Positions 5,250 to 29,000 of a DNA stretch of 64,000 nucleotides are shown in pieces. The stretch spans positions 163,881-227,880 of the forward strand of contig JAUCBJ010006711.1 in assembly GCA_032718475.1 (NCBI GenBank), in the 5' to 3' direction. Origin of the DNA: Nemertoderma westbladi. Taxonomy: Eukaryota > Animalia > Xenacoelomorpha. Position 1 is the stretch's first letter. The number at the start of each line of letters is the position of its first letter. The position numbers and the translations under genes were made by a program. The notes under the pieces are model-generated. The model saw only the letters and a list, made by a program, of their open reading frames with translations. It ran no database searches and had not been told where the DNA came from.

Positions 5250-5390
5250 TGAATTACATACAAATTAAATTTACAAAATATTGTCTCTCTCACTGTTTAA
5301 CGATTATTACATACAAATTAAATTTACAAAATATTGTTTCTCTTTCGTTCTACTACATAATGATTACTACATACAAATCAAATATAAAAT
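5250..5390. repeat. ~53-60 bp degenerate direct repeat, 3 copies, in the 3' UTR
   Basis: TACATACAAATTAAATTTACAAAATATTGT occurs twice, plus a diverged third copy. Confidence 0.8.
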
Positions 5391-5590
5391 TTTGCTAGGG
5401 TAAGTGAAAGGAGTAAGCCAAACCCGCAGGTTTGTCTCCCCAATCACTTCCTTCGCCTCTCTCATAATATAAATTCCAAATAGCTCAACTAGTGTATATG
5501 AGTCTAGTCGAAAATTTCCAAATGCTACAATATACATCAGAGCGACGATGATGTATATATCTAGAGTCTGTCGCCCTGTGCTATAATGTA

Positions 5591-9298: not shown

Positions 9299-9405
9299 TA
9301 TGCCTCGCGTATATACATATATATATATCCCAATAAGTGCCGTTACGTAACCAACTACACTGTGGGTAAATCAGTTAGATGTCGCCGAAGGACAGACCTC
9401 CCGAA

Positions 9406-9428
9406 CCCCCCCCCCCCCCCCCCCCCCC
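9406..9428. repeat. C23 homopolymer (G23 on the element sense strand) in the pol-ORF3 spacer
   Basis: Directly visible; a (TA)n tract lies at ~9310-9328. Confidence 0.95.
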
Positions 9429-10026
9429 GCCTTCCAGCAGTTCAGGTTCGACTCTCTAGATCCCGTCTCTTCCTAACTAACTATCCTCTAACCTATTCCC
9501 ATGCATAGCGCAAAAACTTTGGAGATAACCAACCTTTGGAGATGGCCGTGACCAACTCACTTTTTGATGCCCAAACTACTCCCATTACTCGTACTAAACT
9601 ACAGTAGTTAGAAAGGACCATAGCCACAATACTCGACTATACCAAACCCACAGGTTTGATAATCGAACATCACACATCCTGCAAACTACTGAGTGGGGTC
9701 CATGTACGCCTCTGGTGCTACTAACCTTTAGCACCTTAGTTGCACTGTTGGCACCAATCTGTGGAAGTTGCTAAACTCAATTTACACTCCTACGTAATAT
9801 AGCCGTCACCATGGTTTCTAAATGCTATTTTCCAGGCTTCACAACTTTTCAAATTACTGTTTATCTATAGACGAATTCTAAAACGCGTCTATACACAGCG
9901 TCTGGAATTGTCTTGGGTTCACTTCTAATTTTTAAAATTTTGTAATTTTCCAAAAATTTTGAAAATAAAATTTTGTTTTGATACCCACCAGACAAAACTC
10001 AACGCAAATCACCACAACCCCGCTCC

Positions 10027-10063
10027 TATGCATTTCCTTGTATTTGCATACGAGGAATGCATA
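10027..10063 (-). other. Stem-loop just 3' of the pol stop codon, with a GCAA tetraloop on the sense strand
   Basis: Sense strand reads TATGCATTCCTCGTAT-GCAA-ATACAAGGAAATGCATA (one mismatch, one bulge). Confidence 0.6.
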
Positions 10064-10084
10064 CGATGTGAGTTGCGTCCAACA

Positions 10085-13000
10085 CTAACTCTGTTTTGAG
10101 ACAGGAGACAAATTATAATCTCCCGTCTCGATACGTGTCTCCTCTAATAACACAATATCTTGGACCGGTCGGTCCAAGGTGTGTAAACCATTAGTTTTAC
10201 ACTTTTTTGGGTGCGGACACTTGCACCTAATTTTCACAGTGACTGTGCGCACTATGTTTTGCACGTCTGGGTGTGTGTGCAAGATCACTCCAGTCTCCCA
10301 ATACTTTCTCTTGACAATGGGTTCGGTTATCAATACGTAGTCTCCCTTTTGGAGACTCCGAACCGTTTTGTACCACTTTGTTCTGGTGGATATGGTGGGA
10401 AGATAGTATTCCCGCCAATATTCCCAGAATTTGTACGCGACTAATTGAGTCATTTTCCAGCTCTTACGACTATATAGGTCGGCACTAATGGGTTCTGATG
10501 CCGGCACAAGAAATGCTGGACTCTGCATTAGCAAATGATTCGGCGTTAATGCAACACCGTCTGGCAACATAGCTATCGGCCTCGAGTTTAGGGTATGCTC
10601 GATTTCAATGAAAGCTGTGACCAGTTCGTCGTCGGTAAGTTGTTTGTTCACAGGCAATGTTTTGGCAATGGCCTGTTTTACAGAGCGAACCAAACGCTCC
10701 CAAATTCCTCCTCTCCAAGGACTTTCTGGAGTATTAAATCTCCATTCTACTCGTTGCGGCAAAAGTGCTGCAGAAATTTCCTTATTCTGTGCTGCTTTAT
10801 GAGCCGCGTTCAACTCGCTATTCCCTCCGACAAAGTTTGTACCCTTGTCAGAGTAGAACGCCTTTACTAGTCCTCTCCTGGCCATAAATCTCTTTAAGGC
10901 CAGGAGCAGAGATTTGGTCGACATGTCTGCCACACGCTCGATATGTATGGCTCTACTCGCCATACATGTCAGTAGCAGACCCCATCGCTTGTGGGTCAGC
11001 CGTCCACTCTTTGCTTCAATCGGACCAAAACAGTCCACCCCTGTATTCGTAAAGGGTGGGTCATATGCCTGCACTCTCGCTTCCGGGAGTTCAGCCATCT
11101 CCTGTTCCAATACTCTGGCGTTCACCCTCTTGCAAACCAGACAGGCGTCATACATAGTGCCGACTGCCCTGCTTGGCTGCAATAGAATGAATCGCTGTCT
11201 CGCTGCCGACAGACAGTGTAACTTTCCCGCGTGATGCAACCTCTTATGTATATCCCATAGAATCGCTCTTTGCAATTCTATCGGGTAACTAGGGATTATC
11301 ACTGGGAACCGAAACTGTGAGTTTATGTCGACAGTCTGGATTCTCGATCTATGACAAATCAAACCCTTATGGATTAATGGACTCCATTTTCTAAGGGGTT
11401 TATAGAGAACTGGTCGATGAGCCGATAATAGATGGAATTCTTTCGGGAAGGCACACATTTGATAATGTTTCAAATGCTTTAATTCCGCTTGATCAATCTC
11501 ATCCTCTGTCAGAGGTTGTTTCAATTTCCGAATTCGCTCACTATTGGTGCTCAATGGTTCTCTCAAATGTTTTGAATGTTTTAAACAAAGGTACGAAACG
11601 TATCGGCTTAACCACGCAGGTCTTTTACAAATTGTCAGCCAAGAGGCAGACGAATTTAGTAATTTGTCATAAATACTGCATGACTCTAATGCCAGCGACG
11701 GTTGTCCGCTAACTAATGGACGTTTCGAATCCAAACCCGCAGGTTTGGAAACCAAAGGATCCATTGTGTCGGTCATTTTCTGTCCGTCACTTACCAATTG
11801 TGACTCCGGTTTAGTCTGTAAGGGCGGTTTTATGTCATAACTTACCCTTCCTGACCTAATAGTCACGTAAGTCTGTTGGTCTGACAGGTCTCCGGGCCGC
11901 TCCAATGACTCTTCAGGCTGCTCCAATGACTCTTCAGGCCGCTCCAATGACTTAAGTTTGGCTTTAGACTTCGACTTAGAGACTTTCTCCACTTTGACTT
12001 CTGCATCTTCAGGCATCGGATTGGTCACTATCTTTAGTCGCTCTGGCCAATGTTCCTGTGTCCTCGTTAGAAAATCAGGTCCATGCAACCAAAACTCCTG
12101 CGACTCTTCCTGACAGAATTCCGCCGGCATTGCACCTCTCGAAGTTATGTCGGCCGGGTTCAACACTCCCGGACAATGTCTCCATTGTTCCTTCGTCGAA
12201 AAGTCAACGATCTGAGCGCGTCTATTGGCCACAAATGTCTTTAGTGCAATATTGTCGGCCGCAATGTATACTAACACCAAGGATGCGTCCGTCCAATAGA
12301 ATAAGGTCAATGTCGTGTCTAACTCCTCAGTTATTTGCTTACTTACCTCGACCGAAACTACAGCCGCCTGTAACTCTGCACGAGGGACAGTCATGTATTT
12401 GACCGGCATTGTCTTTGATCTAGAAGTCACAAAAGCCGTCTCAAACTTGTCCTGACTTACCTCTCGGCGAAGGTAGGCTACCATACCAAAACCGGTGTCA
12501 CTTGCGTCACTAAATAGGTGGAGCTCTAAATCAGCTGGGAATACCAGCTGATTCGGAAGGTAGGAACGGGGTACATCTATATTTTTCAATAGATGCAACT
12601 CGGCTTCCCACTCCCTCCACTGCTTTGCATGTATAGGAGATATTGGTTCGTCCCACTCTAAGTCGGACAACCAAATTTTCCTCATGCACGCTCGTGCCTG
12701 TAATATAACCGGACTGATAAAGTTCATCGGGTCAAATAGTCTACTCAATGTCGATAAGCAAATCCTCTTAGTCAAAACTTTGTCTGGGCTACTGGGCTCA
12801 AATCTAACTCTTACCTGGAACTTATCTGAGTTCGGGTTCCAAGCGAGTCCCAGTACTCGCGCCATGGGAATTGGTTCTACCCCCAATTCTATGTCTCCGC
12901 TCCCGCGATCCTTTACCGGGAACGACTCTAATAGGGCCTCCGAGTTCGTAGTGAACTTGGTCAGAGGAAATCCCCCTGTAGCCAAGCACTCCTGCAGGCC

Positions 13001-16000
13001 GTGAGCCACTTCTATGGCTTGTTCCGCTGTGTCCTTGGACACCAATCCGTCGTCCATATAGAAGTTTCTCAATATAGACTCGATTACTTCTACTGGATAC
13101 TTACCAATCTGGGCTGTTGCCGTTTTCTTTAAAACGAACAGCGTGCCATTCGGACTATCGCGGGCGCCAAATATCCTAACGTACATCTGGTATGTAACCA
13201 CTGGGCCGGATAAGTCTTCATTCTCAAACCAGAGAAATCGAAGGCTATCCTGGTCTGCCTTACAGGCTCTTACCTGGTGGAACATCGCCTCGATGTCACA
13301 AGTAAATGCGAATCGCCGCTGTCTAAAACGCAACAGTATTCCGATCAAATAGTTATTCAGGTTGGGACCATCCATCAACTCTGAATTCAGGGACATACCT
13401 CTATAGACTGCTGCGCAGTCGTTGACTACTCGGACTTTGTCTGGCTTGTCAGGGTGAGTCACATAGTGGTGTGGAAGGTAATAAGTCTGGTCTGTCACCA
13501 AGTCAGGGTCCTCTACCTTCCCAGCAAATCCCTTGGCGAAATAGTTGTTGATCTGGGCGCAATACTTCTCCCTAATGTCCGGATTCTTCAACAACCGAGC
13601 CCTTACTCCGTTCAATCTTTTCAAGGCTAAGTTGTAGTTGTTCTCCAACTTAGGTGGTTGTCGACGCCACAACATTCCAACTTCAAAATGTCCAGTCGGT
13701 AGTAGACGTATGGTATCTTCCATCATCTCCAACGACCGTTTCTCATCAGTAGACATGGCTAGGTCATATCCACCGGGTTCCATTGCGTCCCTATCCAGCC
13801 ATTCGACGGTTCTAGCTCCTGTCTCGAGGTCCTGGCGTATCAATTCCTTTTGTAATTCCTCCTCACTGTATTGGAAAATGTCTAGGTCTCGAGATTTAGC
13901 CACTTGACCCTCCACTATGTCTGTATAAGTCAAAACGTTAGTCAAATAGGTAGCGTGGGCCGCTGAACCAGACCCACGGGTCTGATAACAGTAGTCCTCG
14001 GGTTCACTATCTGTCCGGTCATTATGAAGTGGTTCCGACAACCTAACATTATCGGGAATCAACTCCTCATCTGACTCGCTAAAGTCACTATAGTGGTCAA
14101 TACAGGTTCTCCTAAACTCGTCTATGTCTGGTGGTTTTACTAACGGTGGTTGAGCTATAGGCTGTAATTCGTCGTATCTATTCATTGGCTTGTCGCCACC
14201 TGTAAACTCATAAGACATGGGTACTCGTGTATACCAACCTAGTATGGTCCTATGGGCATGTGGTCCATTGACATGCGGCTCAGCTGGTCTCGTTTCCCAT
14301 ATCTGGTGTGCGATCAGCTGTTCTGCACCAATCAACATAGAAACATTCCTATAACCTACCTGGTGTCTGGGTATCCTGAGCTTGTCAAAATACTCCTGTG
14401 CTATGGGACTCATCGGCGGCACCTTACCTAACTGCCTGCCGAATCCCTTCATAGCTAGACACTTAAATCCGTCCAATGGCAAAGCTTTCCGTTCTTGTCG
14501 AGTATGCTGGTCTCTCGGAAGTAGGGAATCTAGTTCCACCGAAATTCTGTGTCCCTTGAGGTCACCTACCCCATGCATAGACTTCAACTCTATTTGGATC
14601 TCCTCGGCGTCCTGGAAGCTAGAAACAGCTCTCGCCACTTCCTCGTCGATATACGATAATGTGGACGCAGTGTCCAACATCACATATATTCGCTTCGATC
14701 CCTTATCGCTGGTGAGTTTCACCGGAATCACGCTAAATATTTCCGACGTGGCCGATGATAAATACGTCCGCGCGCTGGTCGATGAACTATCCGCGGTGAA
14801 ACCTTGGCAGGTCACTTCTCTCGCGCTCGACTCGCCATCCTCGTCCGACGAACCTGGTTGGTAACCATCGTCCTGGATGCCAGTGTACGTATTCCTCCTT
14901 ATCGATACGGGTTCTTTGCTCCCCTTCCTTTGAGGATTTCGCTGTAAGTAACGGTCCGTTGGGGTATGGAAATCCGCATGTAGCAACTTGTGATGTAGTC
15001 TGCCGCATTCCATGCATCCGTCCTTGCTGTTCGGGCACTGCCGCCGTACATGTCCTGGCGCAAGACAAGCCCAACAGGTGTCCAACGTCCGCACTTGAAC
15101 TCTTCTCTGTTCTGAATTTAATTCCTTGAACCGTCTGCAACTATCTAACTTATGGTCGTCAGATCTTACCTCCTTTAGTAAACAGTATTGGCAACCTACA
15201 AATCCATCCGGCAACTCCTGTTGCTTTAACCTAGGTCTATCTAACCGCTCACCTGACCATACTCGCGAGTCTGATCTAAAGGCTGGGGTATTCGAATTAT
15301 ATCTGTCTACTGAGTTATAAGTCACAGTGGTCCTGTCATCGTCAAAACTTACCATAGACTTACCGGTAACAGGTTTAGACTCTCTCATATTCTCTTCTGA
15401 GAAGTTTGATTTCATCTCTGCTACTGCGTCTGTGGCTATCATGTCATGAATATGCTGAAGTGTCAATACTTTACCTTGGCCCTCCAACTTATTCTCTAAT
15501 TTGCGCCATTTCTGTCGGTAACGCATGTTTAGACGTCTTATTACGCTCTTTAAAACTTCGGCGTGATCACCATGATGAGGTAGATTCACCGTCCTCAAGA
15601 TGTCCAATGCGTTCGAAATAGCGTTCGCTAAATTCAACAGCTCAAACGGAGTTGTAATCCTTCCGCCCTTACCCAAGTCTTCTACTATCGACTGCGCCAT
15701 CTTGGTTTTATTCCCGTAGATGTCGCTAAGCGTCTTCATTGCTAACTCGAATGCTCTTTCGTTGCCGACGAAATTATCAGCAATGGCTCTAGGTTCTCGA
15801 TGGAGCATCTGAAGCAAATAGTTGAACTTCTCGTTGGGAGTAAAGGTGCTGTTGGTTAGCTGCTCGTCGACATAGGTTTTAAAGGTCCTCCAGTGCTTGT
15901 GGTTGCCCATAAACTTCTGGGGTTGTTGCGTCGGCAGTCCTTGCCTAGCAGCAAACTTACCTATGTCCCTAAGGGTTGCGTCGTTCCGGGTTAACAAATG

Positions 16001-17788
16001 GTTTAGTTCCGCAGGGTTGTTAAGTCTGGTCCTTTCCCGGTGGTTCCAACTTACCTGCTCCGCGTTGGTCCTTCTTTCCTTATAGTTTCGGGACTTCTGA
16101 CGTCTCATTTCTTCCTCTTCATCGCTTGACTCGGTGTCAGTCCTTAGCGCTCGCGATGATTTGCGCGCCGAGGCCCTGACCCAAGCATCCTGAATAAATC
16201 TTTCTGCCGAATTTTCGAAATTGGGATTATGGATATTCGGGACAGGCGTCCTTACCTGAGGTCTATGTGGTATAGTTTCCTCCGATATGCGTACTCGTTG
16301 ACTAGGCTGGACTTTATCTAACTCAGGCCTGCTGGGATTAGAATTACTTCTTACCTGGGCTGCTTCCTTTAACCGTAGGTTGCTAAGCATGTCCGTTATA
16401 GGTTGGATGTGCGGCGATATAGCTTGCGCTAAACTAGCACTTAACTCATCCCTCGTAATAAATTCCTGGCTAGGGTTCTGTTGTATAGTCGGCTCTATCT
16501 GAGTAATCCGCTGTCTCTCATATGATCCCTCTTCCGGTTTAACCCGGAAGTTCTCCGTCGAACTGGGTCGGCGCTCCGTCCGCGTATTCCAAACCCTCGG
16601 GTTCGGTTCGCCAAGTACTCGTTCCGTCGGAGTTTCTTCTCTAAATTCTCCGTTCTCGCGTTCGATATATAGTGGTGCGGTGTTCCGATGACGTAGATCC
16701 TGAGCGATGGGTGAAACACTAATACCAACTGGCGTGCGATATGTAGAGAATGGTTTAGCGATCCGTGTACTCGTAATAGCTGGACCGAGTATAGGAATTC
16801 TGGTCGTCGTTGACTCGCGTATAGTCGGAGTTCTCGCTTCCTGTTCGGCCTTCTGCAGTGCGAACAGTTCTCGCAACTCTGTCCCCACACTCGCCCCACA
16901 TTCTTCGAGCATTCGCATCCCCTTCTCGGCGATTTCGTTCGCCTTCCTAGTCCGTTCTTCGCTCTCTAAACTTAATCTCGCACTTTCCAACTGCGCCAGT
17001 TTACGCTCTTCTTCTTCCCTCGCTCGTCTCGCTGCGCTCTCTTCTTCTACTCGCGACCTTTCTTCATACAATGCGCGTCTTCTTTTCTCGATCTCGAGTT
17101 CGCGTTCCTTGCGTCCGCGTTCGAGTTGAAGCTCGCGCTCCTTCTGTTCACGATCGAGTTTCTTGCGCTCGCGTTCGGCTTGGAGTTCGCGTTTCTTCGC
17201 TTCCTGTTCGCATTCAAGTTGGAGTTCGCGTTCTCTCTGTTCGCGTTCGAGTTGGAGTTCGCGTTTCTTCGCTTCCCGCTCGCATTCAAGTTGGAGTTCG
17301 CGTTCTCTCTGTTCGCGTTCGAGTTCCTCGCGCTCGCGCTCGGCTTGGAGTTCGCGTTCCCTTTGCTCGCGTTCCGCTCGCTCGCGCTTACTTATCTCTT
17401 CCAACTCTCGTAACTCTGCGTCCAACTTACGTGTGCGCTCCCGTTCCCGCTCGGCTTCCTTCCGTGCTTCCTGTGCACGCAAAACTTCCGCCTGCTGTTC
17501 GTCTAGTCGGCGTCTTCTCTCCTCCGCCGAGTTGTGAGAAACAAGGGATCTAGCACATATTACCTTACCTCGCGCGTGACTAACCTGGGAATCGCCGCTG
17601 TCTCTAGATGCATCGTCGGTTGGAGTCAACGTCCTCTGTTGGATGTTCTCCGTCGTCGGTAGCACCTGACCTGGTACCACCACTCCATTCTGCATCAGCC
17701 AGCTAGTAACTTCCCTCTGATACCGGCGCTCCTCTTTATCCTGCGTCTCTTCTCGCTCCACTAAGTCTCTCAACTCTGCGTCACTCAC
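10085..17788 (-). CDS. BEL/Pao Gag-Pol polyprotein (Gag, protease, RT, RNase H, integrase)
   Basis: Three BEL knuckles (CQYC..H..C, CWACLAPGHVRRQC, CMECGRLHHKLLH); PR MLDTAST; RT YLPHH, CDIEAMFHQV, FYMDDG; RH LFSDAS, PRAEL, WTDA, NPADITSRG; IN HKRLHH..CLVC, GVDCFGP, YSDKGTNF, WERLVRSVK; C-terminal RPVQDIVLLE. Confidence 0.97.
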   Translation of the reverse strand: MSDAELRDLVEREETQDKEERRYQREVTSWLMQNGVVVPGQVLPTTENIQQRTLTPTDDASRDSGDSQVSHARGKVICARSLVSHNSAEERRRRLDEQQAEVLRAQEARKEAERERERTRKLDAELRELEEISKRERAEREQRERELQAEREREELEREQRERELQLECEREAKKRELQLEREQRERELQLECEQEAKKRELQAERERKKLDREQKERELQLERGRKERELEIEKRRRALYEERSRVEEESAARRAREEEERKLAQLESARLSLESEERTRKANEIAEKGMRMLEECGASVGTELRELFALQKAEQEARTPTIRESTTTRIPILGPAITSTRIAKPFSTYRTPVGISVSPIAQDLRHRNTAPLYIERENGEFREETPTERVLGEPNPRVWNTRTERRPSSTENFRVKPEEGSYERQRITQIEPTIQQNPSQEFITRDELSASLAQAISPHIQPITDMLSNLRLKEAAQVRSNSNPSRPELDKVQPSQRVRISEETIPHRPQVRTPVPNIHNPNFENSAERFIQDAWVRASARKSSRALRTDTESSDEEEEMRRQKSRNYKERRTNAEQVSWNHRERTRLNNPAELNHLLTRNDATLRDIGKFAARQGLPTQQPQKFMGNHKHWRTFKTYVDEQLTNSTFTPNEKFNYLLQMLHREPRAIADNFVGNERAFELAMKTLSDIYGNKTKMAQSIVEDLGKGGRITTPFELLNLANAISNALDILRTVNLPHHGDHAEVLKSVIRRLNMRYRQKWRKLENKLEGQGKVLTLQHIHDMIATDAVAEMKSNFSEENMRESKPVTGKSMVSFDDDRTTVTYNSVDRYNSNTPAFRSDSRVWSGERLDRPRLKQQELPDGFVGCQYCLLKEVRSDDHKLDSCRRFKELNSEQRRVQVRTLDTCWACLAPGHVRRQCPNSKDGCMECGRLHHKLLHADFHTPTDRYLQRNPQRKGSKEPVSIRRNTYTGIQDDGYQPGSSDEDGESSAREVTCQGFTADSSSTSARTYLSSATSEIFSVIPVKLTSDKGSKRIYVMLDTASTLSYIDEEVARAVSSFQDAEEIQIELKSMHGVGDLKGHRISVELDSLLPRDQHTRQERKALPLDGFKCLAMKGFGRQLGKVPPMSPIAQEYFDKLRIPRHQVGYRNVSMLIGAEQLIAHQIWETRPAEPHVNGPHAHRTILGWYTRVPMSYEFTGGDKPMNRYDELQPIAQPPLVKPPDIDEFRRTCIDHYSDFSESDEELIPDNVRLSEPLHNDRTDSEPEDYCYQTRGSGSAAHATYLTNVLTYTDIVEGQVAKSRDLDIFQYSEEELQKELIRQDLETGARTVEWLDRDAMEPGGYDLAMSTDEKRSLEMMEDTIRLLPTGHFEVGMLWRRQPPKLENNYNLALKRLNGVRARLLKNPDIREKYCAQINNYFAKGFAGKVEDPDLVTDQTYYLPHHYVTHPDKPDKVRVVNDCAAVYRGMSLNSELMDGPNLNNYLIGILLRFRQRRFAFTCDIEAMFHQVRACKADQDSLRFLWFENEDLSGPVVTYQMYVRIFGARDSPNGTLFVLKKTATAQIGKYPVEVIESILRNFYMDDGLVSKDTAEQAIEVAHGLQECLATGGFPLTKFTTNSEALLESFPVKDRGSGDIELGVEPIPMARVLGLAWNPNSDKFQVRVRFEPSSPDKVLTKRICLSTLSRLFDPMNFISPVILQARACMRKIWLSDLEWDEPISPIHAKQWREWEAELHLLKNIDVPRSYLPNQLVFPADLELHLFSDASDTGFGMVAYLRREVSQDKFETAFVTSRSKTMPVKYMTVPRAELQAAVVSVEVSKQITEELDTTLTLFYWTDASLVLVYIAADNIALKTFVANRRAQIVDFSTKEQWRHCPGVLNPADITSRGAMPAEFCQEESQEFWLHGPDFLTRTQEHWPERLKIVTNPMPEDAEVKVEKVSKSKSKAKLKSLERPEESLEQPEESLERPGDLSDQQTYVTIRSGRVSYDIKPPLQTKPESQLVSDGQKMTDTMDPLVSKPAGLDSKRPLVSGQPSLALESCSIYDKLLNSSASWLTICKRPAWLSRYVSYLCLKHSKHLREPLSTNSERIRKLKQPLTEDEIDQAELKHLKHYQMCAFPKEFHLLSAHRPVLYKPLRKWSPLIHKGLICHRSRIQTVDINSQFRFPVIIPSYPIELQRAILWDIHKRLHHAGKLHCLSAARQRFILLQPSRAVGTMYDACLVCKRVNARVLEQEMAELPEARVQAYDPPFTNTGVDCFGPIEAKSGRLTHKRWGLLLTCMASRAIHIERVADMSTKSLLLALKRFMARRGLVKAFYSDKGTNFVGGNSELNAAHKAAQNKEISAALLPQRVEWRFNTPESPWRGGIWERLVRSVKQAIAKTLPVNKQLTDDELVTAFIEIEHTLNSRPIAMLPDGVALTPNHLLMQSPAFLVPASEPISADLYSRKSWKMTQLVAYKFWEYWREYYLPTISTRTKWYKTVRSLQKGDYVLITEPIVKRKYWETGVILHTHPDVQNIVRTVTVKIRCKCPHPKKCKTNGLHTLDRPVQDIVLLEETRIETGDYNLSPVSKQS
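17060..17400 (-). repeat. Coding tandem repeats giving an E/R-rich coiled coil in Gag (RELQxExE units, 33-36 bp)
   Basis: TTGGAGTTCGCGTT recurs on the + strand; protein RERELQAERE/KRELQLEREQ. Confidence 0.85.
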
Positions 17789-18534
17789 CTGAGTCGCCTG
17801 CGCTTGTGATGCCCATAGCAGCCAGTTCTCTGTCCTAACTCGTCGGATCGCTCCGATAACTCGCGGTGCTCCAACAAGGCTGCTAAAACCCTGTCGTAAA
17901 TCCTCGTCGCCACGTCGCTCGACTGAGACTCTACTGCCTTCTTCGCTAGGACTGCAAGCTCCTCCGTCTGCTTGAATAACGCTGAGTTATATCCTCTTCT
18001 AATCTCTGCTAACTCTACCCTCCCGATGTTGGCTGAGTCGGCCAACATTTTTCTTACCTTGTCCGCCGTCCGAGTTATATGTCCGGCATGCGCGCGAAGT
18101 TTCTTCTTTATCGCGATATCAAGTTCTCTATCACTTACCTGACTTACACTCGGTGGACTTGAAGGATTATTTCGGGAACTACGGGTACTCCTTACAGCCG
18201 TTGGGACCACGGCACTTACCATACCCACAGGTCTGGAAACCGGGCTCCGGGCTCTCGCTTCTGCTACACTATCCTCCCTATCACTCACCTCTGTCCGGGC
18301 TGCCGTACAGTCCTTCCTTACAGTAGCGGTAGGGGATCCTAATACTATTACTTGAGGTTGCTGTTCTTCCTCACTAGTCACTGTCTCGTCCTCCTGTTCA
18401 CTTACGTCAGCGTCACTCGCTGCGTCGTCATAGTCGGCATTGTCGTCAACAGTAATATTGACGCTATCGTCAGTCGGCGGTCCAGCCGCCGTCTCGTAGC
18501 TGTCCTCTAGTGCCTCCTTGTCTGAGACACTCAT
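17785..18534 (-). CDS. Gag N-terminal segment, joined to the main polyprotein by a -1 frame change near 17835
   Basis: ATG start, acidic N-terminus and helical segment; overlaps the open upstream extension (RTENWLLWASQAQATQV) of the 10085..17788 frame, which itself starts only at a GTG. Confidence 0.85.
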   Translation of the reverse strand: MSVSDKEALEDSYETAAGPPTDDSVNITVDDNADYDDAASDADVSEQEDETVTSEEEQQPQVIVLGSPTATVRKDCTAARTEVSDREDSVAEARARSPVSRPVGMVSAVVPTAVRSTRSSRNNPSSPPSVSQVSDRELDIAIKKKLRAHAGHITRTADKVRKMLADSANIGRVELAEIRRGYNSALFKQTEELAVLAKKAVESQSSDVATRIYDRVLAALLEHRELSERSDELGQRTGCYGHHKRRRLR

Positions 18535-19379
18535 AGTCTAAATAATGTTTGCCTTCCGGCAAAATATCTCGCAAAGGTTCGAGATATGATTATAATTTAA
18601 CCGAAATACGGTCAAATTATTTGTCAAATAATCAGTTGGTCCAAAATGTCAAAATAAATTCGCAATGCAATATTGTGAATTTAATGGGGTATATAGTTAT
18701 AGCAAATACTAGCACAATATTTAAACAAAAATATTATTATATAGCTACTATATAGTATTAAATACCGGTATAGCACAAAATAACTCTGAATCTAATACAA
18801 AATATTCAAAATATACTTGCCACCCGAATATTTCTAATTTTATATATATATAGCTCTAATCAACGTAATTTTAATTTCAAATATTATATGTATCCACTAA
18901 CGCGTGGCTACATCTTCGGGTTGCGACTCTCTCTAACTCTCTCTCTAACTTGAGCGATTCAAAACCATGGTCGGCTAAACCTAAATATCCTAACTAATAA
19001 ATTGAGTTCAGCTTCGCAGTTAAACAACCGATAATTTTTTACTGCTTCCACAAACACACTGGTGCCAACAGAACAACTAACCTTGTTTGCTGTGAGATTC
19101 CACGTCCGCGTCCAAAGATTCAGGCCCTTCGCTGATTGCAAACCGAACCCGCAGACCCACACGAACCCCAAACTCAGAAGTTCCGTCTTGCCATGTATCT
19201 CCAGATGGTATAAAATAACTAAGCGGTTACCTAACATACCGGTACAAAACTCTAGAATTTTACAAAATAATTTTGACCGAAACTGAATTCTCGCAAACCT
19301 AGCTAATAATTTTCAAAAAACTTACTAATTACAGTTTGCCCTAAGGCCTAAGGAACTGCTGTATTCGCAATTAGCAAAA

Positions 19380-19830
19380 ACGCACTACCGTACATTCACT
19401 GTATGCAGTACAGTAAGTAAAACAGTACACCAACCTAACAGCCTAATGATACTGTGTGTGGTACGGCAAAACAAATGTCCCTTCTACCGTCCGCAGTAAC
19501 AACAATCAGCCTAATGTACTACTGTACTATCGTACGCAGCCAGTGAATACAGTAATCTAAACTAACAGCCTAAAAGAATATACTCAATGTTCTACCGTAC
19601 GCTAGCCTATAGCCTACAGCAGACGATCACGTGCTCCAATTTATTGCCTAATACTATGATATTACTATCAGCCTAAGAATACTCTATTGACCGCTGCAAG
19701 CAACAGCCAATAACGCGTATTACTGATACGAAGTATCAGTAAATCTAAATCTTCACGGCCTAAGAATATACTCTATGTCCTACTGTACGTGGTAGGCCTA
19801 CAGCAGACAATAATGCGCGTATTACTGATA
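19380..19830. repeat. Degenerate direct repeats in the 5' leader/U5 region
   Basis: GCCTAA(A)GAATATACTC..GCCTACAGCAGAC at ~19568 and ~19758; CGCGTATTACTGATA at ~19714 and ~19816; several CAGCCTAA units. Confidence 0.6.
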
Positions 19831-21490
19831 AACAACCACGACCTCTATACTAACAGCAGAACTGTTGAACAGACCAATACCCGTTAATATCCTTCTGCCA
19901 ACCTAATAAGTTCTCGTCTAACCAATAAGACACAAAGACTGCTCTACTGTTAAGTAAAGGGGCTCAGGAGCGTGATATTACTAAATTGTAAGGGTTGCTA
20001 AATACAAAACCGCTACTTACCGTTAGATGGCGCTAATCTGCCGTCCGCTAATATATTTACTAATTTTACACAACTCCTGCAAAATCGCTTGTTCCTTTCT
20101 CTACCGATTGCTCAATAGAGAGCTAACTGTTCGAATCTATGAGCCACACAGGAATAACCAAAACAATAAACCCGAGTCGGCTCCCTAAGCTTACTTAAGA
20201 CGAGTGCGAGAGGCCTTGCACTCAGAGTATTCTTACGCCTAATTCTATCACTATTAAAGCACGCTATTACCTACGTCTTTTCTAATCGCGAATACTGGGG
20301 GTTCTCTAACGTAATGTGTGAATGCGAGAATATTTAAAATATCAAAAATGGTACAGTAATTGTCTCTCGTGGATAGTACCACTCTGGGTCTAAAATTGCC
20401 TGCAGCTGGCTTTAGGCCAGCAAATCACTAGCGTTTCGTGCGTACCGAATAGTGCGTTCTAGCTGATTGTCCGCTAATGCAAATAACCGCTCAGCGTGAA
20501 TAGTTTACAGTACTCTAATTATTACTTTAGCTACTCTCCGCTATGCTGCGTACTAATTCTTAATTTTACTAATCAATTACAGTCACAAATATTTAACAGC
20601 GTACTAATTACTAAGAGTTCCAGAATACGTGATTCTAATTTATCACGCAACAGGTTTCGCTAGTAATAGCCTAAATTGCCGTATTACTTTGACCTAATCA
20701 GTAACTAATTGTTGTAACTAAGAAATAGAAATCAATCAAAGAGAAAAGAGCGCCTACCTAAACATTCACAATCATAGGCACACTTCAGTAACACACCAAT
20801 CAGCGTCAGCAATCACAGTTCGCAATTATGCAGTTAACTACTGTATAGCCCACAATTATGCGACTCACTATTCGTACTACACGCTCAACGTTCGAAACGT
20901 TGTGATACGTGCAGGCCTCTCCCGGGTACATATAGGACTCCTAACTAACCTGATTCCCGCCCCCCTAATACTAAATAGAGACGAAACCTGGATCATCAGC
21001 CCCCTAATTACCGTACCGGCGATTGGTCTGCGTACCACAGCGTTAACTTCCCGACCGCAACGGTGACCCCACGCCAGCGTTGCTCGCTTTGAATCCTCCG
21101 CTCTCCCTTAGTCGCCCAACCCCCCGATGTGCCCACCGCCCGCTGGCGCCTTAGCCCTCCATTACGCTAATAGCTACCGTAGCGGCGCATGCAAATCACA
21201 AAGTCTGACAGTCTCAGAAATCCCTTAGGATTATTGCGCAGGAAAGAATCACATAGAACCATTAATCAAAAGTAGAAATCATAGTTCAGTTGTAATTAGC
21301 AGTAATCGAAGGAATTAATTGAGAAACACAAGCAAGAGTAATCGCACTAGCAAATCATTTCAAGAAATTAATCAAATTGCAAAAATACTCTAAAATCCGT
21401 CAAAATTGAATAGAGACAGCTCAGCAAGTACAACAGCAGTGAAGGTTGAATCGATCGATAGGCTCTACCGGCACACCGCCAATTTATAGG
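19826..21490 (-). repeat. 5' LTR remnant of the inner element, cut 2 bp upstream of the TATA box
   Basis: Near-identical to 2911-4575; lacks the counterpart of 4576-5098. Confidence 0.85.
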
Positions 21491-21541
21491 GGCACCTTAG
21501 TGGAGTTAGAGAAGAGTTTAGTCATCCAAGATTTGGACTGA
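21491..21541 (+). pseudogene. Possible extreme C-terminus of the outer Pol (GTLVELEKSLVIQDLD*)
   Basis: Resembles the BEL terminal motif seen in the inner element (QDIVLLEE) and is followed by an A-rich non-coding spacer; short match. Confidence 0.45.
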
Positions 21542-21650
21542 GGACGGTGGGATTGAGACGCCCTTCCCACACAAAAAATTTAAAATAAAAAAAAAAATAA
21601 AATAATAGTACATAATAGGTACGCAGTTAGTAGGCAGAAGTTAGCCAGTA

Positions 21651-22021
21651 AGAGGTACGTAGTACCTAGAGTTAGTTAGTTAAGAGGTACGTAGTACCTA
21701 GAGTTAGTTAGTTAGTTAGGAGGTACGAGAGAGTTAGAGGGTACGTAGTACCGTTAGTTAGAGAGTTAGAGGGTACATAGTACCGTTAGTTAGAGAGTTA
21801 GAGGGTACGTAGTACCATTAGTTGGAGAGTTAGAGGGTACGTAGTACCGTTAGTTAGAGAGTTAGAGGGTACGTAGTACCGTTAGTTAGAGAGTTAGAGG
21901 GTACGTAGTACCATTAGTTAGAGAGTTAGAGGGTACGTAGTACCGTTAGTTAGAGAGTTAGAGGGTACATAGTACCGTTAGTTAGAGAAGAGTTAGAGTT
22001 AGAGGGTACGTAGTACCATTA
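21651..22021. repeat. 32-bp minisatellite GTTAGTTAGAGAGTTAGAGGGTACGTAGTACC, ~11 copies including variants
   Basis: GTAC core recurs at 21741, 21773, 21805, 21837, 21869, 21901, 21933 and 21965; each unit contains the GGTAC-GTA-GTACC mini-hairpin. Confidence 0.95.
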
Positions 22022-22510
22022 GTAAGAGAGAGAGTAAGAGGTAGAAGGGTATATACGATATAGATATTAGTTACCAGTTAGTAGTGAGAGGGGGGCATAT
22101 GAGTACAGCTGGGTAAATTGTGTGGCCACGCGATGCATACTGCTGTACTGTACAGGCCCACAGAGTAGGCCAGAATGTGGATTAGAGAATAGAATAATCC
22201 ATAGGCAATAGTAAGTAGTAGGACAGTAGAATTAAAACTAAACTAAAATAAATAGAATAGGGCTGAAAGTTACAAATTATGGCAACACTAGGAAAGTTAT
22301 TCTGGAACATAATAAAAGTAACTGACAGAAATTAAAATTAGGGTGTATTTACTAGCTTCAGAATTAATTAGTAATAATTTAGGCAAAAAGGGCGCAGTTG
22401 AGTAAGGAATAGGCCATTATCGGACCGTACAGAACATCTTAGATACATCACTCATCTGTATTGCGCCTTGGTAAGGCACCACCTTACAGATGAGCAAGTG
22501 AGTGTTCGGA

Positions 22511-24547
22511 ATGGCGAGCAAATTGATCAGAAAGAGAAAGGCGGAGTCAGGAGGAAAGGAGATACTGGTGGATTTCACCGAGAGGCATCCGGAAGAGAAG
22601 ATTAGAGGATACTACGAGAGGTTGGAAAGGGGTCACGCGGCACGAGCGCTGCAGGATCACTTCCAGGAGATGCACGAACAGCGGCTGGTCGGGACCTACG
22701 GGATGCCGTCGCTGGACAATGCGATCTTCCAACACTTCCACTACGTGGTGAAAGGGGACGAGGCGAAGTTCGGGATTCCGAAGTACCTGAGGGAATCACC
22801 GAGGAAGGATTGGAAGAGATTCATAGAGTCCGTCAACAGGGGAGGATACATGATCCTAGACGACGAGGGAACCGTGGAAGACGAGGAGGGTTCGAGACGA
22901 GGATCGGCGGGGTCGGCCAGGACCATACTCCTACATTTGGCCGCGCCAAATGGGGACATCTTCTTATTCGATCTAGGAACGTACAGGAAGAAGGACGGGC
23001 CGAAATTAAACCGGTTGCCGAAAGCGGTACAAGTCTTGGTAAGAGAGAAGTCGACGACGAAAGTAGGATCGGCGATTCACGAGGACGCAGAGAGAATCAT
23101 CGGTCCGGACGCCACCAACCTCCTGGATATGCAGAAGGTCTTCATGGCTATGACGGCACCGGATGGGTTGGGGGTAGTCGGAAACACAGGCCAATGCGGG
23201 GTGGTGGCAATGGGCCAACTATTGGGGCTCGTATGCCACAAACCGATGGACTGGGGGAAGTTCAGGGAAGAATACGGAGCAGAACTAGTGAACTCGCTAA
23301 AGTGGGGAGCGAGACCGGGAAAGCAAGAGGTATATCAATTCCGCAGAGGAGCGATAAAGGTATATCAGAAGCGATATATCCTGCAGGAAGATTGGATGAT
23401 GATAAGTTTGCTAAACTTATTTTTGACCGTGGTTATCGAGAGGGAACCAGCGGCATTTCTGTTATCGGGATCACCCCTAAGCTACAGGAGAGCCTTTAAA
23501 ATGGCCTTCGACGGTCTGGTAGACCACCCGGGGCTGAAGGGCGAGTCGGTATACTACAACAGCCGACATCTGGTAGACGGGGAGACAGATACGCCGTATC
23601 AGAGATGGGAGCAGCTAGTGACGGATAGACGAGAAGCAAAGCGACTGGAAGAAGTCGCTAGACGGGAGAGGATAGAAGCAGAGGAGAGGGAAGAAGAGGC
23701 CAGGACGCAGAGTTACGGCTTCGAGGAACAGGCAGGCTTAGACGAACTTCATTGGACTTCATCAGGGAGTTCGGGGGAGTCTCTAGGGCGAGAATTGGGA
23801 TGGACAGTGGGATCGCCGAAACAGTCAACGTCGGGGTTGCAAGCGATGCCCATACCAGCGGGGGCCGAAGGTGACCAACCGCCAAGGAAGTTAAGGGAGC
23901 TAGAGGGATGGAGAGCTACGGGCGAGAGCCAAGGCGGGAAGGGACATAGTGGATCCATCGGGATACCGGGGTTGGAGCCACTGCCAGAGGAGGAGGAGGA
24001 TGACGACGAGTTCGGAGGGGTGCCGCCCATCGAGAGGATTGGCCACTCGGACACGGACTGGGTTGGCGGGAGGGTGGTGACGGCCAGTGGGGCGAGGGCC
24101 TTCTGGAACAGATCCGGCAAGCGGACCTGGGTGCACGAGGAGCCGGCGATGGATTTCGCGGGGAGCACTATCAGGTTGGGCGAGCAACCGGGGACGGCAC
24201 CACGGATAGTATTCGGGGAGACAATGCCCGAGAGGGGCGGAGAGATCGATGTAGACAGGGACACCAACGTGGAGAAGTTCGCCTACCAGCGACTCCACAG
24301 ACCGCGGAGATCGCTTGGGGCGAAAGACGACGTGGGGCGGGAGACGCGCCATGACGCGCCAGCGCATGAAGGCCCAGGAGTTCAAGTGGGGTTTCTTCCT
24401 TATCAATCAGGAGGCTCACATGGAAATCATAAAGCGGAGGCTACCGTTTACCTATCAAGAGGTAGCAACGGCGGCGTCGTATGCCGGAGTGATGAATACA
24501 CAAAGATATTTGGACAGGTGGACGCCACAGAACCGAGGGGAGTTTAG
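22511..24547 (+). CDS. Extra ORF (ORF3) of the outer element: DEDDy-like 3'-5' exonuclease domain, then acidic linker; frameshifted near 24310-24335
   Basis: ATG at 22511 (MASKLIRKRK); ExoI MILDDEG (~22850), LLHLA..IFLFDL, LPKAVQVLVREKSTTKVGSAIHED (ExoII, ~23060), LLDMQ, GVVAMGQLL, ExoIII-like QKRYILQE (~23375). Confidence 0.78.
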   Translation: MASKLIRKRKAESGGKEILVDFTERHPEEKIRGYYERLERGHAARALQDHFQEMHEQRLVGTYGMPSLDNAIFQHFHYVVKGDEAKFGIPKYLRESPRKDWKRFIESVNRGGYMILDDEGTVEDEEGSRRGSAGSARTILLHLAAPNGDIFLFDLGTYRKKDGPKLNRLPKAVQVLVREKSTTKVGSAIHEDAERIIGPDATNLLDMQKVFMAMTAPDGLGVVGNTGQCGVVAMGQLLGLVCHKPMDWGKFREEYGAELVNSLKWGARPGKQEVYQFRRGAIKVYQKRYILQEDWMMISLLNLFLTVVIEREPAAFLLSGSPLSYRRAFKMAFDGLVDHPGLKGESVYYNSRHLVDGETDTPYQRWEQLVTDRREAKRLEEVARRERIEAEEREEEARTQSYGFEEQAGLDELHWTSSGSSGESLGRELGWTVGSPKQSTSGLQAMPIPAGAEGDQPPRKLRELEGWRATGESQGGKGHSGSIGIPGLEPLPEEEEDDDEFGGVPPIERIGHSDTDWVGGRVVTASGARAFWNRSGKRTWVHEEPAMDFAGSTIRLGEQPGTAPRIVFGETMPERGGEIDVDRDTNVEKFAYQRLHRPRRSLGAKDDVGRETRHDAPAHEGPGVQVGFLPYQSGGSHGNHKAEATVYLSRGSNGGVVCRSDEYTKIFGQVDATEPRGV

Positions 24548-24818
24548 GGATTTCTTGGCGGAGCACGTGCCGCGAGCAATGAAAATGATCCTATGGGACG
24601 CCACCAGAGGGAGACAACAGGGCCACTCTGAGGGGCCACCTGCGAAGCGATATCGGGCACTAATAACACCAGCGCCCATGGAGCCAACAACTGGAATCAG
24701 CAGGGAGGTGGCGGCAAAAGTCCGAAAGCAGAAAGCGGATCCCAGAGGAGCGGTGGTAACCAAGAAACGACCCAGGGAAGAGGACGCCAGGGGGAACTAT
24801 CCCCAGAGGAACAGATAG
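24315..24818 (+). pseudogene. Frameshifted C-terminal part of the outer ORF3
   Basis: KWGFFLI..LPFTYQEV aligns by eye with inner ORF3 GYGFWAV..LPQYQEL; ends in a basic tail. Confidence 0.6.
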
Positions 24819-25103
24819 GTTCCCAGGGCTGGGGGAGAGAAACTGAGACTTGGACGTGGTACGCCTGGAAGGCGCCGCGTGGGACGTACGAACTATTAAG
24901 TACAAATTAAGCTGATGCAAAATAATTAAATAAGTGCAATTATATGTACGTACGTAGTGATCAGTAATTTAGCAATAAAATATACGTTCGGAGTAAGTAC
25001 CATAGTCATACAACCTTTCTCAATTAGCTACTGGGACTGGGGGGATAACTGACTAGACTATGGCACTATGGACGAGACGCCAGACGATTTCACACTTCTT
25101 GAG

Positions 25104-26060
25104 TGTGACGGCACAAGAGGGGGGGGGAGATTCGTCAGAAGGGATGAGGTAGCCAAAGAGAGACGGAGTAATAGTGCGAAGTGCGGATAGAGTGCGGACG
25201 CAATTCTAGTGTGGGGGGGGGGGAGAATAAGAAGCTGAGTGAGGGACGAGGAGGTCCGAGGGTATGAGAGAGTTAGGGTGAGAGTGGAGAAGAGATAGGG
25301 CGAAGGTGTTGGGGAAACAAAAGTTGCATGAGAGGTGAGCGCGATCGGCCCGACATGGGACGCCAGGCATACAGGGTAGCGTTATCATACCCATAGGGAG
25401 CGGCCTGGAAAGCCAGCTCCGAGAGAAAAGAATTCCACCCCACACCCGATACTAGATCGGGATCCAGCGGGATTGTAGCGCACTTTGAGGTGGATGCTAT
25501 CTTCTCACCGGGAAGATAGCATGGGGGGGAGTGTTAGCTTATTCAATCCCGCTAACACCCCATAAAGTTAAGCCGATAAGCAATATTGGGGGCCATGAGA
25601 TTGAGTAATCAATCACACGTGCCACCCCAACAAAATGGGAAGGAGAAACACACAATGAGGGTCAGGGGCCAAACCCCTAAGCCAGAGAGAACAGGTGGAG
25701 TGAACGGGAACACTCCAAAGGGCGCCAACAAGGGTATCAACCAATCAGAGGGGGGAAAGGCATCGATTAGGTAGAGTAACAAGGCCAACCGTGCAATATA
25801 GCCAGTTGGCAGTAATCACTTTACTCAGTTATCTCAGTATCATATTGGTGCTAGTTAGGTTAGTTAGTTTAGCTAGGGAAGGACCGGGACTTTAATTACC
25901 GTTTCCCGCCTTCTGTGTACAACATCATATATCTATATCTATATCTTTTACCTGAATATTATACGCGACAAACAACGTAAACCCTTTCACTCTTCACACA
26001 CGGCGGGGACGCGTAAATTAACAAACGGATAAACCGGGATCCTCCCTGGATCCCGTCACA
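25104..26060 (+). repeat. 3' LTR of the outer element (957 bp; alternative start 25532)
   Basis: Perfect 8-bp terminal inverted repeat TGTGACGG..CCGTCACA and a sharp junction to satellite at 26061. An alternative start, GGGGGGGAG|TGTTAGC at 25532, has a better polypurine tract. The partner LTR is outside the window. Confidence 0.7.
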
Positions 26061-29000
26061 GAGATGGATGAATTTTGATTGTGTCAGAACACCCCCTATC
26101 TGTGGCTGTCTGAGTTGAGAAATAAGTAGCCTATCTCCCTATTAATATTGTTGTGTTCTAGAATATTTATTATAGTTTCATCGTATTGCTAAAGTGGCTG
26201 GAGCCAAAGTTATTATGTAATGCAATAATTCACCTCAAATATCTCAGCTATTTCATGAACATAATGAAATATTATATCCATGTCAAATTCCTTGGTATTT
26301 TTCTGCAATAATTTTTCAAAATATCCTCTGATTTTTTTCAAAAACCATATCAATTTTCATATTTATAACTTCTATCCCACTCCACGAGATAAAGAATCTT
26401 AAATGAAAGTCAAAAGAAGAGGTAACAATTACATTTATAGAAGTAATCAGCTGTTATTTGCTACGTCTTTCCGCTGGAGATGGATGAATTTTGATTGTGT
26501 CAGAACACCCCCTATCTGTGGCTGTCTGAGTTGAGAAATAAGTAGCCTATCTCCCTATTAATATTGTTGTGTTCTAGAATATTTATTATAGTTTCATCGT
26601 ATTGCTAAAGTGGCTGGAGCTAAAGTTATTATGTAATGCAATAATTCACCTCAAATATCTCAGCTATTTCATGAACATAATCAAGTATTAAAGCCATGTC
26701 AAAATCCTTGTTGTTTTTCTGCAATAATTTATCAAAATATCCTCTGATTTTTTACAAAAATCATATCGATTTTCATATTTATAACTTCTATCCCACTCCA
26801 CGAGATAGATAATCTTAAATTAACGTCAAAAGAACAGGTAACACTTACATTTATAGCAGTAATCAGCTGTTATTTGCTACGTCTTTCCGCTGGAGATGGA
26901 TGAATTTTGATTGCGTTGGAACACCCCCTATCTGTGGCTGTCTGAGTGGAGAGATAAGTAGCCTATCTCCCTGTTAATATTGTTGTGTTCTAGAATATTT
27001 ATTATAGTTTCATCGTATTGCCAAAGTGACTAGAGCTGAAGTTGACTCATAATACAATAATTCACCTCAAATATCTCAGCTATTTCATGAACATAATGAA
27101 GTATTAAATCCATGTCAAATTCCTTGGTATTTTTTTGCAATAATTTATCAAAATATCCTCTGATTTTTTTCAAAAACCACATCGATTTTCTTATTTATAA
27201 CTTCTATCCCACTCAACGAGATAGAGAATCTTAAATGAACGTCAAAAGAACAGGTAACACTTACATTTATAGCAGTAATCAGCTGTTATTTGCTACGTCT
27301 TCCCACTGGAGATGGATGAATTTTGATTGCGTTGGAACACCCCCTATCTGTGGCTGTCTGAGTGGAGAGATAAGTAGCCTATCTCCCTGTTAATATTGTT
27401 GTGTTCTAGAATATTTATTATAGTTTTATCGTATTGCCAAAGTGACTAGAGCTGAAGTTGACTCATAATACAATAATTCACCTCAAATATCTCAGCTATT
27501 TCATGAACATAATGATGTATTAAATCCATGTCAAATTCCTTGGTATTTTTCTGCAATAATTTATCAAAATATCCTCTGATTTTTTTCAAAAACCATATCA
27601 ATTTTCATATTTATAACTTCTATCCCACTCCACGAGATAGAGAATCTTAAATGAACGTCAAAAGAACAGGTAACACTTAAATTTATAGAAGTAATCAGCT
27701 GTTATTTGCTACGTCTTTCCGCTGGAGATGGATGAATTTTGATTGCGTTGGAACACCCCCTATCTGTGGCTTTCTGAGTGGAGAGATAAGTATCCTATCT
27801 CCCTATTAATATTGTTGTGTTCTAGAATATTTTTTATAGTTTCATCGTATTGCCAAACTGACTAGAGCTGAAGTTAACTCATAATACAATAATTCACCTC
27901 AAATATCTCAGCTATTTCATGAACATAATGAAGTATTAAAGCCATGTCAAAATCATTGGTGTTTTTCTGCAATAATTTATCAAAATATCCTCTGATTTTT
28001 TTCAAAAACCACATCGATTTTCTTATTTATAACTTCTATCCCACTCCACGAGATAGAGAATCTTAAATGAACGTCAAAAGAACAGGTAACACTTACATTT
28101 ATAGCAGTAATCAGCTGTTATTTGCTACGTCTTTCCGCTGGAGATGGATGAATTTTGATTGCGTTGGAACACCCCCTATCTGTGGCTGTCTGAGTGGAGA
28201 GATAAGTAGCCTATCTCCCTGTTAATATTGTTGTGTTCTAGAATATTTATTATAGTTTCATCGTATTGCCAAAGTGACTACAGCTGAAGTTGACTCATAA
28301 TACAATAATTCACCTCAAATATCTCAGCTATTTCATGAACATAATGAAGTAAAAATCCATGTCAAATTCCTTGGCATTTTTCTGCAATAATTTATCAAAA
28401 TATCCTCTGATTTTTTTAAAAAACCATATCAATTTTCATATTTATAACTTCTATCCCACTCAACGAGATAAAGTATCTTAAATGAAAGTCAAAAGAACAG
28501 GTAACACTTACATTTATAGAAGTAATCAGCTGTTATTTGCTACGTCTTTCCGCTGGAGATGGATGAATTTTGATTGCGTTGGAACACCCCCTATCTGTGG
28601 CTTTCTGAGTGGAGAGATAAGTATCCTATCTCCCTATTAATATTGTTGTGTTGAATATTTTTTATAGTTTCATCGTATTGCCAAAGTGACTAGAGCTCAA
28701 GTTGTCTCATAATACAATAATTCACCTCAAATATCTCAGCTATTTCATGAACATAATGAAGTATTAAATCCATGTCAAAATCCTTGGTATTGTTCTGCAA
28801 TAATTTATCAAAATATCCTCTGATTTTTTTCAAAAACCATATCAATTTTCATATTTATAACTTCTATCCCACTCCACGAGATAGAGAATCTTAAATGAAA
28901 GTCAAAAGAACAGGTAACACTTACATTTATAGAAGTAATCAGCTGTTATTTTCTACGTCATTCCGCTGGAGATGGATGAATTTTGATTGTGTCAGAACAC

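Follow-up and report, generated by a model that had tools for sequence, protein, structure and literature searches.

A decayed retroelement accessory gene with a predicted DEDD exonuclease fold, and its very distant homologue in a nested BEL/Pao element

Layout of the locus

The window analysed here is a stretch of 64,000 nucleotides from Nemertoderma westbladi (contig JAUCBJ010006711.1, positions 163,881 to 227,880 of the forward strand), and the subject of this report is the reading frame at 22511-24818 within it, referred to as the outer ORF3 (ORF, open reading frame). It is probably the decayed accessory gene of a retroelement, homologous to the third reading frame (inner ORF3) of a BEL/Pao element nested in the same window. 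Both proteins are predicted to adopt an RNase D/WRN-type DEDD exonuclease fold, and in the replication complex of the element they would probably serve to trim RNA or complementary DNA (cDNA) at single-stranded 3' ends.

The window opens within an outer gag-pol frame on the plus strand, which is cut just past the RNase H region and lacks an integrase. Pfam domains found in this fragment are Peptidase_A17 (1.9e-39), Asp_protease_2 and RVT_1. The main features on the outer side, with the nested element that stands between its two parts, are as follows.

2-2910, plus strand: outer BEL/Pao gag-pol fragment, with zinc knuckle, protease, reverse transcriptase (RT) and RNase H region
2911-21490, minus strand: nested young BEL/Pao element, recognized by its pair of long terminal repeats (LTRs) and its Pfam domains
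21491-22510, plus strand: non-coding spacer between the nested element and the outer ORF3, with an A-rich run and 32-bp tandem repeats at 21622-22055
22511-24352, plus strand: outer ORF3, frame 1, 614 codons counted from the ATG
22805-23458, plus strand: outer exonuclease-like domain, with D120 (22859), E122 (22865), D195 (23084), Y292 (23375) and E296 (23387)
24343-24362, plus strand: frame break in the outer ORF3, consisting of a small and imperfect tandem duplication of a length not divisible by three
24354-24818, plus strand: outer ORF3, frame 2, with the C-terminal module at 24354-24488 followed by a basic tail; stop codon at 24816-24818
24819-26060, plus strand: 3' non-coding end of the ORF3-bearing repeat, repeated in all four sequencing runs considered below

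Between its LTRs the inner element carries gag, a Pao-type pol with integrase and ORF3, and thus belongs to BEL/Pao; Pfam finds Peptidase_A17 (1.3e-38), DUF1759, Integrase_H2C2, rve and DUF5641 in its pol. It is young and fully open, its LTRs differing at 3 positions in 1665 nt. Its ORF3 is a separate frame about 0.8 kb after pol, and the intact element is the sure case of a BEL/Pao element bearing an exonuclease-like ORF3. Its parts are listed below.

2911-4575 and 19826-21490: inner LTRs, 3 mismatches in 1665 nt
17785-18537, minus strand: inner gag, open
10085-17986, minus strand: inner pol, 2633 codons
5870-9370, minus strand: inner ORF3 (P0002), intact, 1166 codons between stops, with its first ATG at 9298
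about 7145-7882, minus strand: exonuclease-like domain of the inner ORF3, with D509, E511, D607 and Y713-x3-E717
6245-6649, minus strand: three CCHC knuckles and C-terminal module of the inner ORF3

Homology of the two ORF3 proteins

The outer ORF3 was compared as two frames, namely P0001, which runs stop to stop at 22502-24547 with its ATG at 22511, and the tail P0003, the +1 frame at 24255-24818. When P0001 was compared with P0002 by BLASTP, a single segment was significant, at 30.8 bits and E 3e-4, with 23% identity across 166 amino acids; it spans residues 172-319 of P0001 and 584-740 of P0002. P0003 gave no significant pairwise match to P0002 (E 8.3). An independent hidden Markov model (HMM) was made from the eight database relatives of P0002 only, with no window sequence, and was run on the 192 six-frame ORFs of positions 1-27000. 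The inner ORF3 ranked first of the 192 (132.4 bits, two domains), followed by P0001 (57.3 bits, E 7e-20 calculated for one sequence, profile positions 48-259 on residues 102-319) and by P0003 (6.1 bits, profile positions 551-591, in the last 40 positions), and none of the remaining 189 ORFs scored above 4.6 bits. When P0003 was shuffled, 0 of 1000 shuffles reached 6.1 bits, the top one scoring 4.1. Homology is therefore secure for the N-terminal domain, and weak but colinear for the C-terminal module. The frame at 22511-24818 and the inner ORF3 are thus genuinely homologous, though at a very great distance. This bears out the homology of the two ORF3s claimed by the first-pass annotation, the pairwise and HMM alignments that it called for being both significant.

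The same annotation had seen no DNA similarity between the two ORF3s and had described the Pol proteins as clearly divergent, and both descriptions hold: the best blastn match between the ORF3s covers 28 nt (E 0.08), and the outer and inner pol proteins are 31% identical over 624 amino acids (E 2e-97). The divergence of the ORF3s is deep, with no recent exchange seen between the outer and inner copies.

An alignment of the two proteins motif by motif had also been put forward, and four of its five pairs fall in columns conserved across the family. The pair MILDDEG/MFYDNEG corresponds to ExoI and LPK..KVGS....D to ExoII, LLDMQ/FVDTK is the third conserved motif pair, and WGFF..LPFTYQE/YGFW..LPQYQE is the fourth. 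The remaining pair, AYQRLHRP/IYERAWFP, lies in unconserved, gapped columns and was rejected; it is probably mis-paired, as the residues that come next in the outer protein are aligned by the profile to the module past the zinc knuckles.

The ORF3 protein family

Relatives were collected by an exhaustive phmmer search of the inner ORF3 against 1.84 billion representatives at E <= 1e-3, which returned eight proteins of 514-727 amino acids (best E 3.9e-11). The architecture of the family comprises the exonuclease domain, an acidic linker, three CCHC knuckles and a module of the form F-E-x-F-A-D..T-R-x-R..WGFF..Y-x-E-L, of which the outer C-terminal module (24354-24488) shows T-R-x-R ... WGFF ... 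LPFTYQE. Judged by these alignments, the relatives and the ORF3s constitute a small, very divergent protein family below Pfam's reach. In a tree of the exonuclease domain the partner of the outer copy is not the inner copy but P0011, one of the database proteins, with 87% support, and the identity of the outer domain is 25-27% to P0011 and P0005 versus 20% to the inner copy; the tree is otherwise mostly unresolved, with branch supports of 29-51%.

The inner ORF3 begins with an N-terminal part of about 480 amino acids ahead of the exonuclease domain (7883-9298, minus strand), which has no Pfam match and no counterpart in the outer copy or in the eight database relatives.

In one relative, P0004 (positions 124-2022 of contig L001), the knuckle-WGFF half is duplicated, neither the Glu of ExoI nor the Asp of ExoII is left, and no ExoIII segment aligns; the protein looks like a degenerate or non-catalytic member. 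Any other ORF in this contig of 3685 nt has at most 106 codons. Metagenome and viral contigs yielded no P0008, and viral contigs no P0011. A word-index search with the family alignment at longer lengths found no fused forms, which is weak evidence only. The same kind of search gave no match for the outer domain and, with the family alignment at near lengths, only the family's own member P0005.

A predicted DEDD exonuclease domain

The catalytic columns are occupied in both window proteins by D-x-E, a second Asp and Y-x3-E, at the residues listed above. D-x-E is present in eight of the nine aligned sequences and the ExoII Asp in nine of ten. The ExoI D-x-E and ExoII Asp of the window proteins align to the D-C-E of EXD2 and to its ExoII Asp. 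Searched against PDB, the family profile picked out human EXD2 as the one nuclease (6k17_A, E 2.1e-5; the alignment takes in both ExoI and ExoII), the match to the WRN exonuclease being weak (E 1.4); it also matched the CCHC pair of Lin28 (E 1.1e-5) and the CCHC part of Trypanosoma brucei RNase D (7c45_A, E 3.2e-5). No nuclease was found when single ORF3s, outer or inner, were run by phmmer against PDB, and tblastn against phage records returned nothing.

An AlphaFold model was built on the alignment of ten sequences; a single-sequence model of outer residues 1-353 was discarded (predicted local distance difference test, pLDDT, 36). For outer residues 95-335 the retained model has a pLDDT of 71.2 and a predicted template modelling score (pTM) of 0.72. 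Foldseek against PDB at E <= 1e-3 gave 19 matches, all 19 being chains of the DEDD exonuclease fold, among them ExnV1, phage Pol I, EXD2, T. brucei RNase D, RICE1, Rrp6 and Egalitarian. The 50 best VIA-align matches are likewise all of DEDD fold (Z 12.5-10.3, 153-179 residues aligned, root mean square deviation [rmsd] 3.0-4.4) and include NrnC, WRN, Nibbler, RNase D and the Klenow exonuclease. In the ESM Atlas, clusters of PF01612 type made up 25 of 30 matches for the outer protein (score 0.94) and 24 of 30 for the inner one (score 0.91). Both ORF3s are thus predicted to carry an RNase D/WRN-type DEDD 3'-5' exonuclease fold with the acid residues kept, the last of them as Glu, and the domain would be catalytically active.

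Decay and selection in the outer family

Homology to the family switches frame exactly within 24343-24362, at the short imperfect tandem duplication. A short intron at 24255-24354 was considered in place of the frame break and rejected, the change of frame coinciding with the duplication. Read through with an X at the break, the outer ORF3 yields 769 residues and scores 62.5 bits, with a second domain at profile positions 546-589. A long acidic and glycine-rich linker follows the outer exonuclease-like domain. Frame 1 has only two Cys, both within the exonuclease domain, and frame 2 has none, compared with nine in the knuckle region of the inner protein. The outer copy is decayed: its frame is broken once, seven of its amino-acid changes are private to it, and knuckles are absent.

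In contigs from four public sequencing runs of the same organism, the outer ORF3 region turns up as a repeat of very high abundance. Variation between copies was taken from the best-supported 40 of 596 table rows, 19 of which fall in outer frame 1. Among those 19, 11 places vary between copies, all 11 being third-position and synonymous, and 8 are private to the window copy, 7 of these changing the amino acid. This is the pattern of purifying selection on ORF3 in the outer family, followed by neutral decay of the window copy. In a run from another study (X5), a variant of the outer ORF3 with ten third-position differences fixed between 23269 and 23389 was observed, pointing to a sublineage of its own or to a host population that is related.

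Known exonuclease-bearing retroelements and related enzymes

DEDDy ORF3s have been described in the bdelloid rotifer LTR retrotransposons Juno and Vesta and also in Athena/Terminon Penelope-like elements (Rodriguez, Kenefick and Arkhipova 2017, PMC5408684; PMC6431247). Their function is given as unknown, and 3'-end processing is proposed (PMC5408684). The rotifer ORF3s resemble those of the window in being extra ORFs after pol with an RNase D-like DEDD domain and one Asp/Glu swap, and Cys/His motifs were noted in some of them (PMC5408684). The hosts differ, Juno and Vesta being Ty3/gypsy-like, the others Penelope-like and all low-copy (PMC5408684), whereas here the host is BEL/Pao and the inner element high-copy. 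The rotifer proteins are further set apart through their strong homology to cellular DEDDy enzymes and their DEED motif (PMC5408684), whereas the present family has no Pfam match at threshold, a D-E-D-E pattern, three CCHC knuckles and the WGFF module. In a search of 8.1 million PMC papers and 0.36 million preprints for DEDD exonuclease ORF3s in retroelements, only the rotifer work on Ty3/gypsy-like and Penelope-like elements was found. The kind of ORF3 is already known from rotifers; new here are the host superfamily (BEL/Pao), the combination of domains and a family of sequences that stay under Pfam's threshold.

The nearest solved protein in which a nuclease precedes a knuckle is T. brucei RNase D (PDB 7c42-7c4c, "CCHC-type domain-containing protein"), with a DEDD exonuclease domain and then a CCHC knuckle. 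Its nuclease domain matches the outer model at Foldseek E 7.3e-4 (Z 10.8, rmsd 3.5, 175 residues aligned). It differs in being cellular, in having one knuckle region rather than three and no WGFF module, and in its low identity of 15-19%. EXD2, WRN exonuclease, RNase D and Nibbler (PF01612, DNA_pol_A_exo1) share with the window proteins the fold, the ExoI D-x-E, the ExoII Asp with its following Asp, and the ExoIII Tyr; for WRN against the outer model the values are Z 12.2 and rmsd 3.2 over 168 aligned residues. Unlike these enzymes, the window proteins fall below the Pfam gathering score, have Glu as the ExoIII acid, are encoded by mobile elements and possess a different C-terminal half. T. 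brucei RNase D trims U-tails, in keeping with the title of a PDB entry that names a U12 complex. Within BEL/Pao itself, env-like ORF3s occur; they likewise add a gene to gag and pol, but one for a different protein.

Proposed function and alternative explanations

The ORF3 protein would act as a metal-dependent 3'-5' exonuclease on single-stranded 3' ends, to which its CCHC knuckles, where present, would bring it by binding nucleic acid. It may participate in the processing of element RNA or cDNA, or may counter host 3'-tailing or small-RNA control. A number of observations weigh against this picture. ExoIII reads Y-x3-E, and not Y-x3-D, in the outer and inner proteins and in P0005 and P0011 (two of the eight relatives); in five relatives it is Y/C-x3-D. 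Pfam at E <= 0.01 gives no match for P0001 or P0002, and one of ten family members touches PF01612 (E 0.2, 11.9 bits against a cut-off of 23.6). The Foldseek TM-scores (template modelling scores) are modest, at 0.33-0.49, for a model based on only ten sequences, and dead RNA-binding relatives, Egalitarian and Exd1, are among the structural matches. The outer copy is frame-broken and without CCHC knuckles, of which the inner one has three. The selection count covers the best 40 of 596 rows, and of its 11 synonymous places 10 are confined to a span of 120 nt, perhaps reflecting one sublineage. Finally, the joint between the outer pol and ORF3 contradicts their linkage, the integrase being missing and other copies continuing differently.

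Perhaps the protein is a dead nuclease serving as an RNA-binding adaptor, in the manner of Egalitarian, Exd1 or Maelstrom, which would bind element RNA without cutting it. This main rival on mechanism, which we hold to be rather unlikely, draws on the structural matches and the Glu as last acid just mentioned, on P0004 with its lost ExoI Glu and ExoII Asp and no aligned ExoIII, and on the same idea being raised in the rotifer work (PMC5408684). It is countered by the D-x-E, ExoII Asp and Tyr kept in both window proteins and in most relatives; the change from Asp to Glu beside the retained ExoIII Tyr is conservative, and the Glu codon varies only synonymously among copies (23389). That two unrelated low-complexity frames should look alike by chance is already refuted and deserves next to no credence: the pairwise similarity is weak (E 3e-4, with E 8.3 for the tail) and both proteins have long biased linkers, but the outer domain scores 57 bits with a profile made independently of it, when the other 189 ORFs reach at most 4.6, and the fold and the motif columns agree. 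The exonuclease-like accessory gene is retained as the probable reading of 22511-24818, and the alternatives that follow concern its history.

The first-pass annotation had joined 21491-26060 and 2-2910 into one element. The outer ORF3 would then be the ORF3 of the BEL/Pao family at 2-2910, and 24819-26060, at whose end (26060) the ORF3-bearing repeat terminates in ...ACA against a satellite, would be the 3' LTR; no partner for this LTR was found within the 64-kb window. The shared orientation and the order of pol, ORF3 and end are compatible with such a linkage and do not prove it, and the joint speaks against simple continuity. Of the BEL/Pao domain set, Peptidase_A17 and RT are present at 2-2910, and integrase and DUF5641 are absent from the outer part; no integrase-like stretch was found in 21400-26100, nor do these positions resemble, as DNA, either 2-2910 or the 3' portion of the inner element. 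On at least 25 contigs in the four runs, further copies of the pol family extend past 2894-2910 with purine-rich letters that, compared by eye, are unlike those from 21491 onward. The two inner LTR copies agree as far as 21490, and the flanks taken with that end show no target duplication; a 4-bp AGGG duplication is readable only if the LTR is taken 3 nt shorter, dropping the last three shared letters. The simplest histories of the joint are an assembly join via the inner repeat and a recombination of two of its copies, whether both sat in the same outer element or at separate loci.

A secondary juxtaposition is a serious contender, if somewhat less likely than not. In it, 21491-26060 would come from a different copy, or from an LTR element of a different kind, whose 3' part was brought to its place by recombination between two copies of the inner element or by an assembly join through that 17-kb repeat. 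The absence of the integrase and of the pol 3' end agrees with it, as do the different continuations in the other copies, the lack of a target duplication when the LTR ends where the copies stop agreeing, and the great abundance of both the pol and the ORF3 repeat families in the runs. Against it, both parts have the same orientation, the order pol, ORF3, ...ACA end matches that of the inner element, and the AGGG duplication can be read with the shorter LTR; moreover, a recombination of two inner copies inside one outer element would look identical with the parts staying together.

For an "exonuclease-bearing BEL/Pao clade" there are two cases, of which the inner element is sure and the outer one unsure. 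In rotifers DEDDy ORF3s are shared by unrelated retroelement classes (PMC5408684), and independent capture is therefore a live rival; the gene may have descended vertically in one clade, or may have been captured repeatedly from a pool of genes circulating in retroelements. In the latter case each element, or its ancestor, would have separately gained an exonuclease-knuckle gene from accessory ORFs circulating among retroelements, and the gene would therefore define no BEL/Pao clade. This history is credible without being the one we expect. It is in line with the bdelloid DEDDy ORF3s, which were gained at least two times (Juno, Vesta) and are shared with the Penelope-like Athena (PMC5408684), with the grouping of the outer copy with P0011 (87%) at 25-27% identity to P0011 and P0005 versus 20% to the inner copy, and with the different architectures, the inner protein having the 480-residue N-terminal extension and the knuckles and the outer one neither. 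On the other hand, both ORF3s are separate frames on the same side of pol, their identity of 20-23% fits the 31% of the likewise deeply diverged pol proteins, and most branches of the tree are unresolved (supports 29-51%). As regards the ancient capture maintained by selection that had been proposed at first, the deep divergence and the purifying selection in the outer family speak for it, and independent capture remains its live rival.

Other features of the window

Upstream of the outer ORF3, the tandem repeats at 21622-22055 consist of about 10-13 units of 32 bp around the palindromic core GGTACGTAGTACC, and the number of units differs among copies in the sequencing runs. The satellite at 26061-62627 has a unit of 416 bp in about 88 units that are 94-95% alike, with a guanine-cytosine (GC) content of about 0.32; at 26061 other satellite copies carry on where the element stands, with loose ends. 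The satellite is over at 62627, GC goes up, and 62628-64000 contains only two short frames (79 and 137 codons). In the nested element, the start of pol at 17050-17420 (minus strand) encodes a long Glu/Arg-rich, coiled-coil-like stretch derived from 33-72-bp tandem repeats (ERELQ... units), which is unusual for a BEL/Pao gag region.

Concluding remarks

Accessory genes of retrotransposons reveal what, besides gag and pol, aids their multiplication or their escape from host control. The boldest form of the proposal is that the ORF3 described here is an ancient and selected third gene of BEL/Pao elements, which combines a DEDD exonuclease with three nucleocapsid-like knuckles and a new WGFF module in a sequence family invisible to Pfam, which was kept across families whose pols are only about 30% identical, and which would trim 3' ends, for example by removing host-added tails or the small-RNA guides that restrain retrotransposition; this should be regarded as speculative and, as it stands, doubtful. 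With the intact, young and high-copy BEL/Pao element nested in the window, the host range of the module is widened to a third retroelement superfamily. The inner ORF3 offers an intact protein with which to address the long-standing question of what such nucleases do for retroelements.

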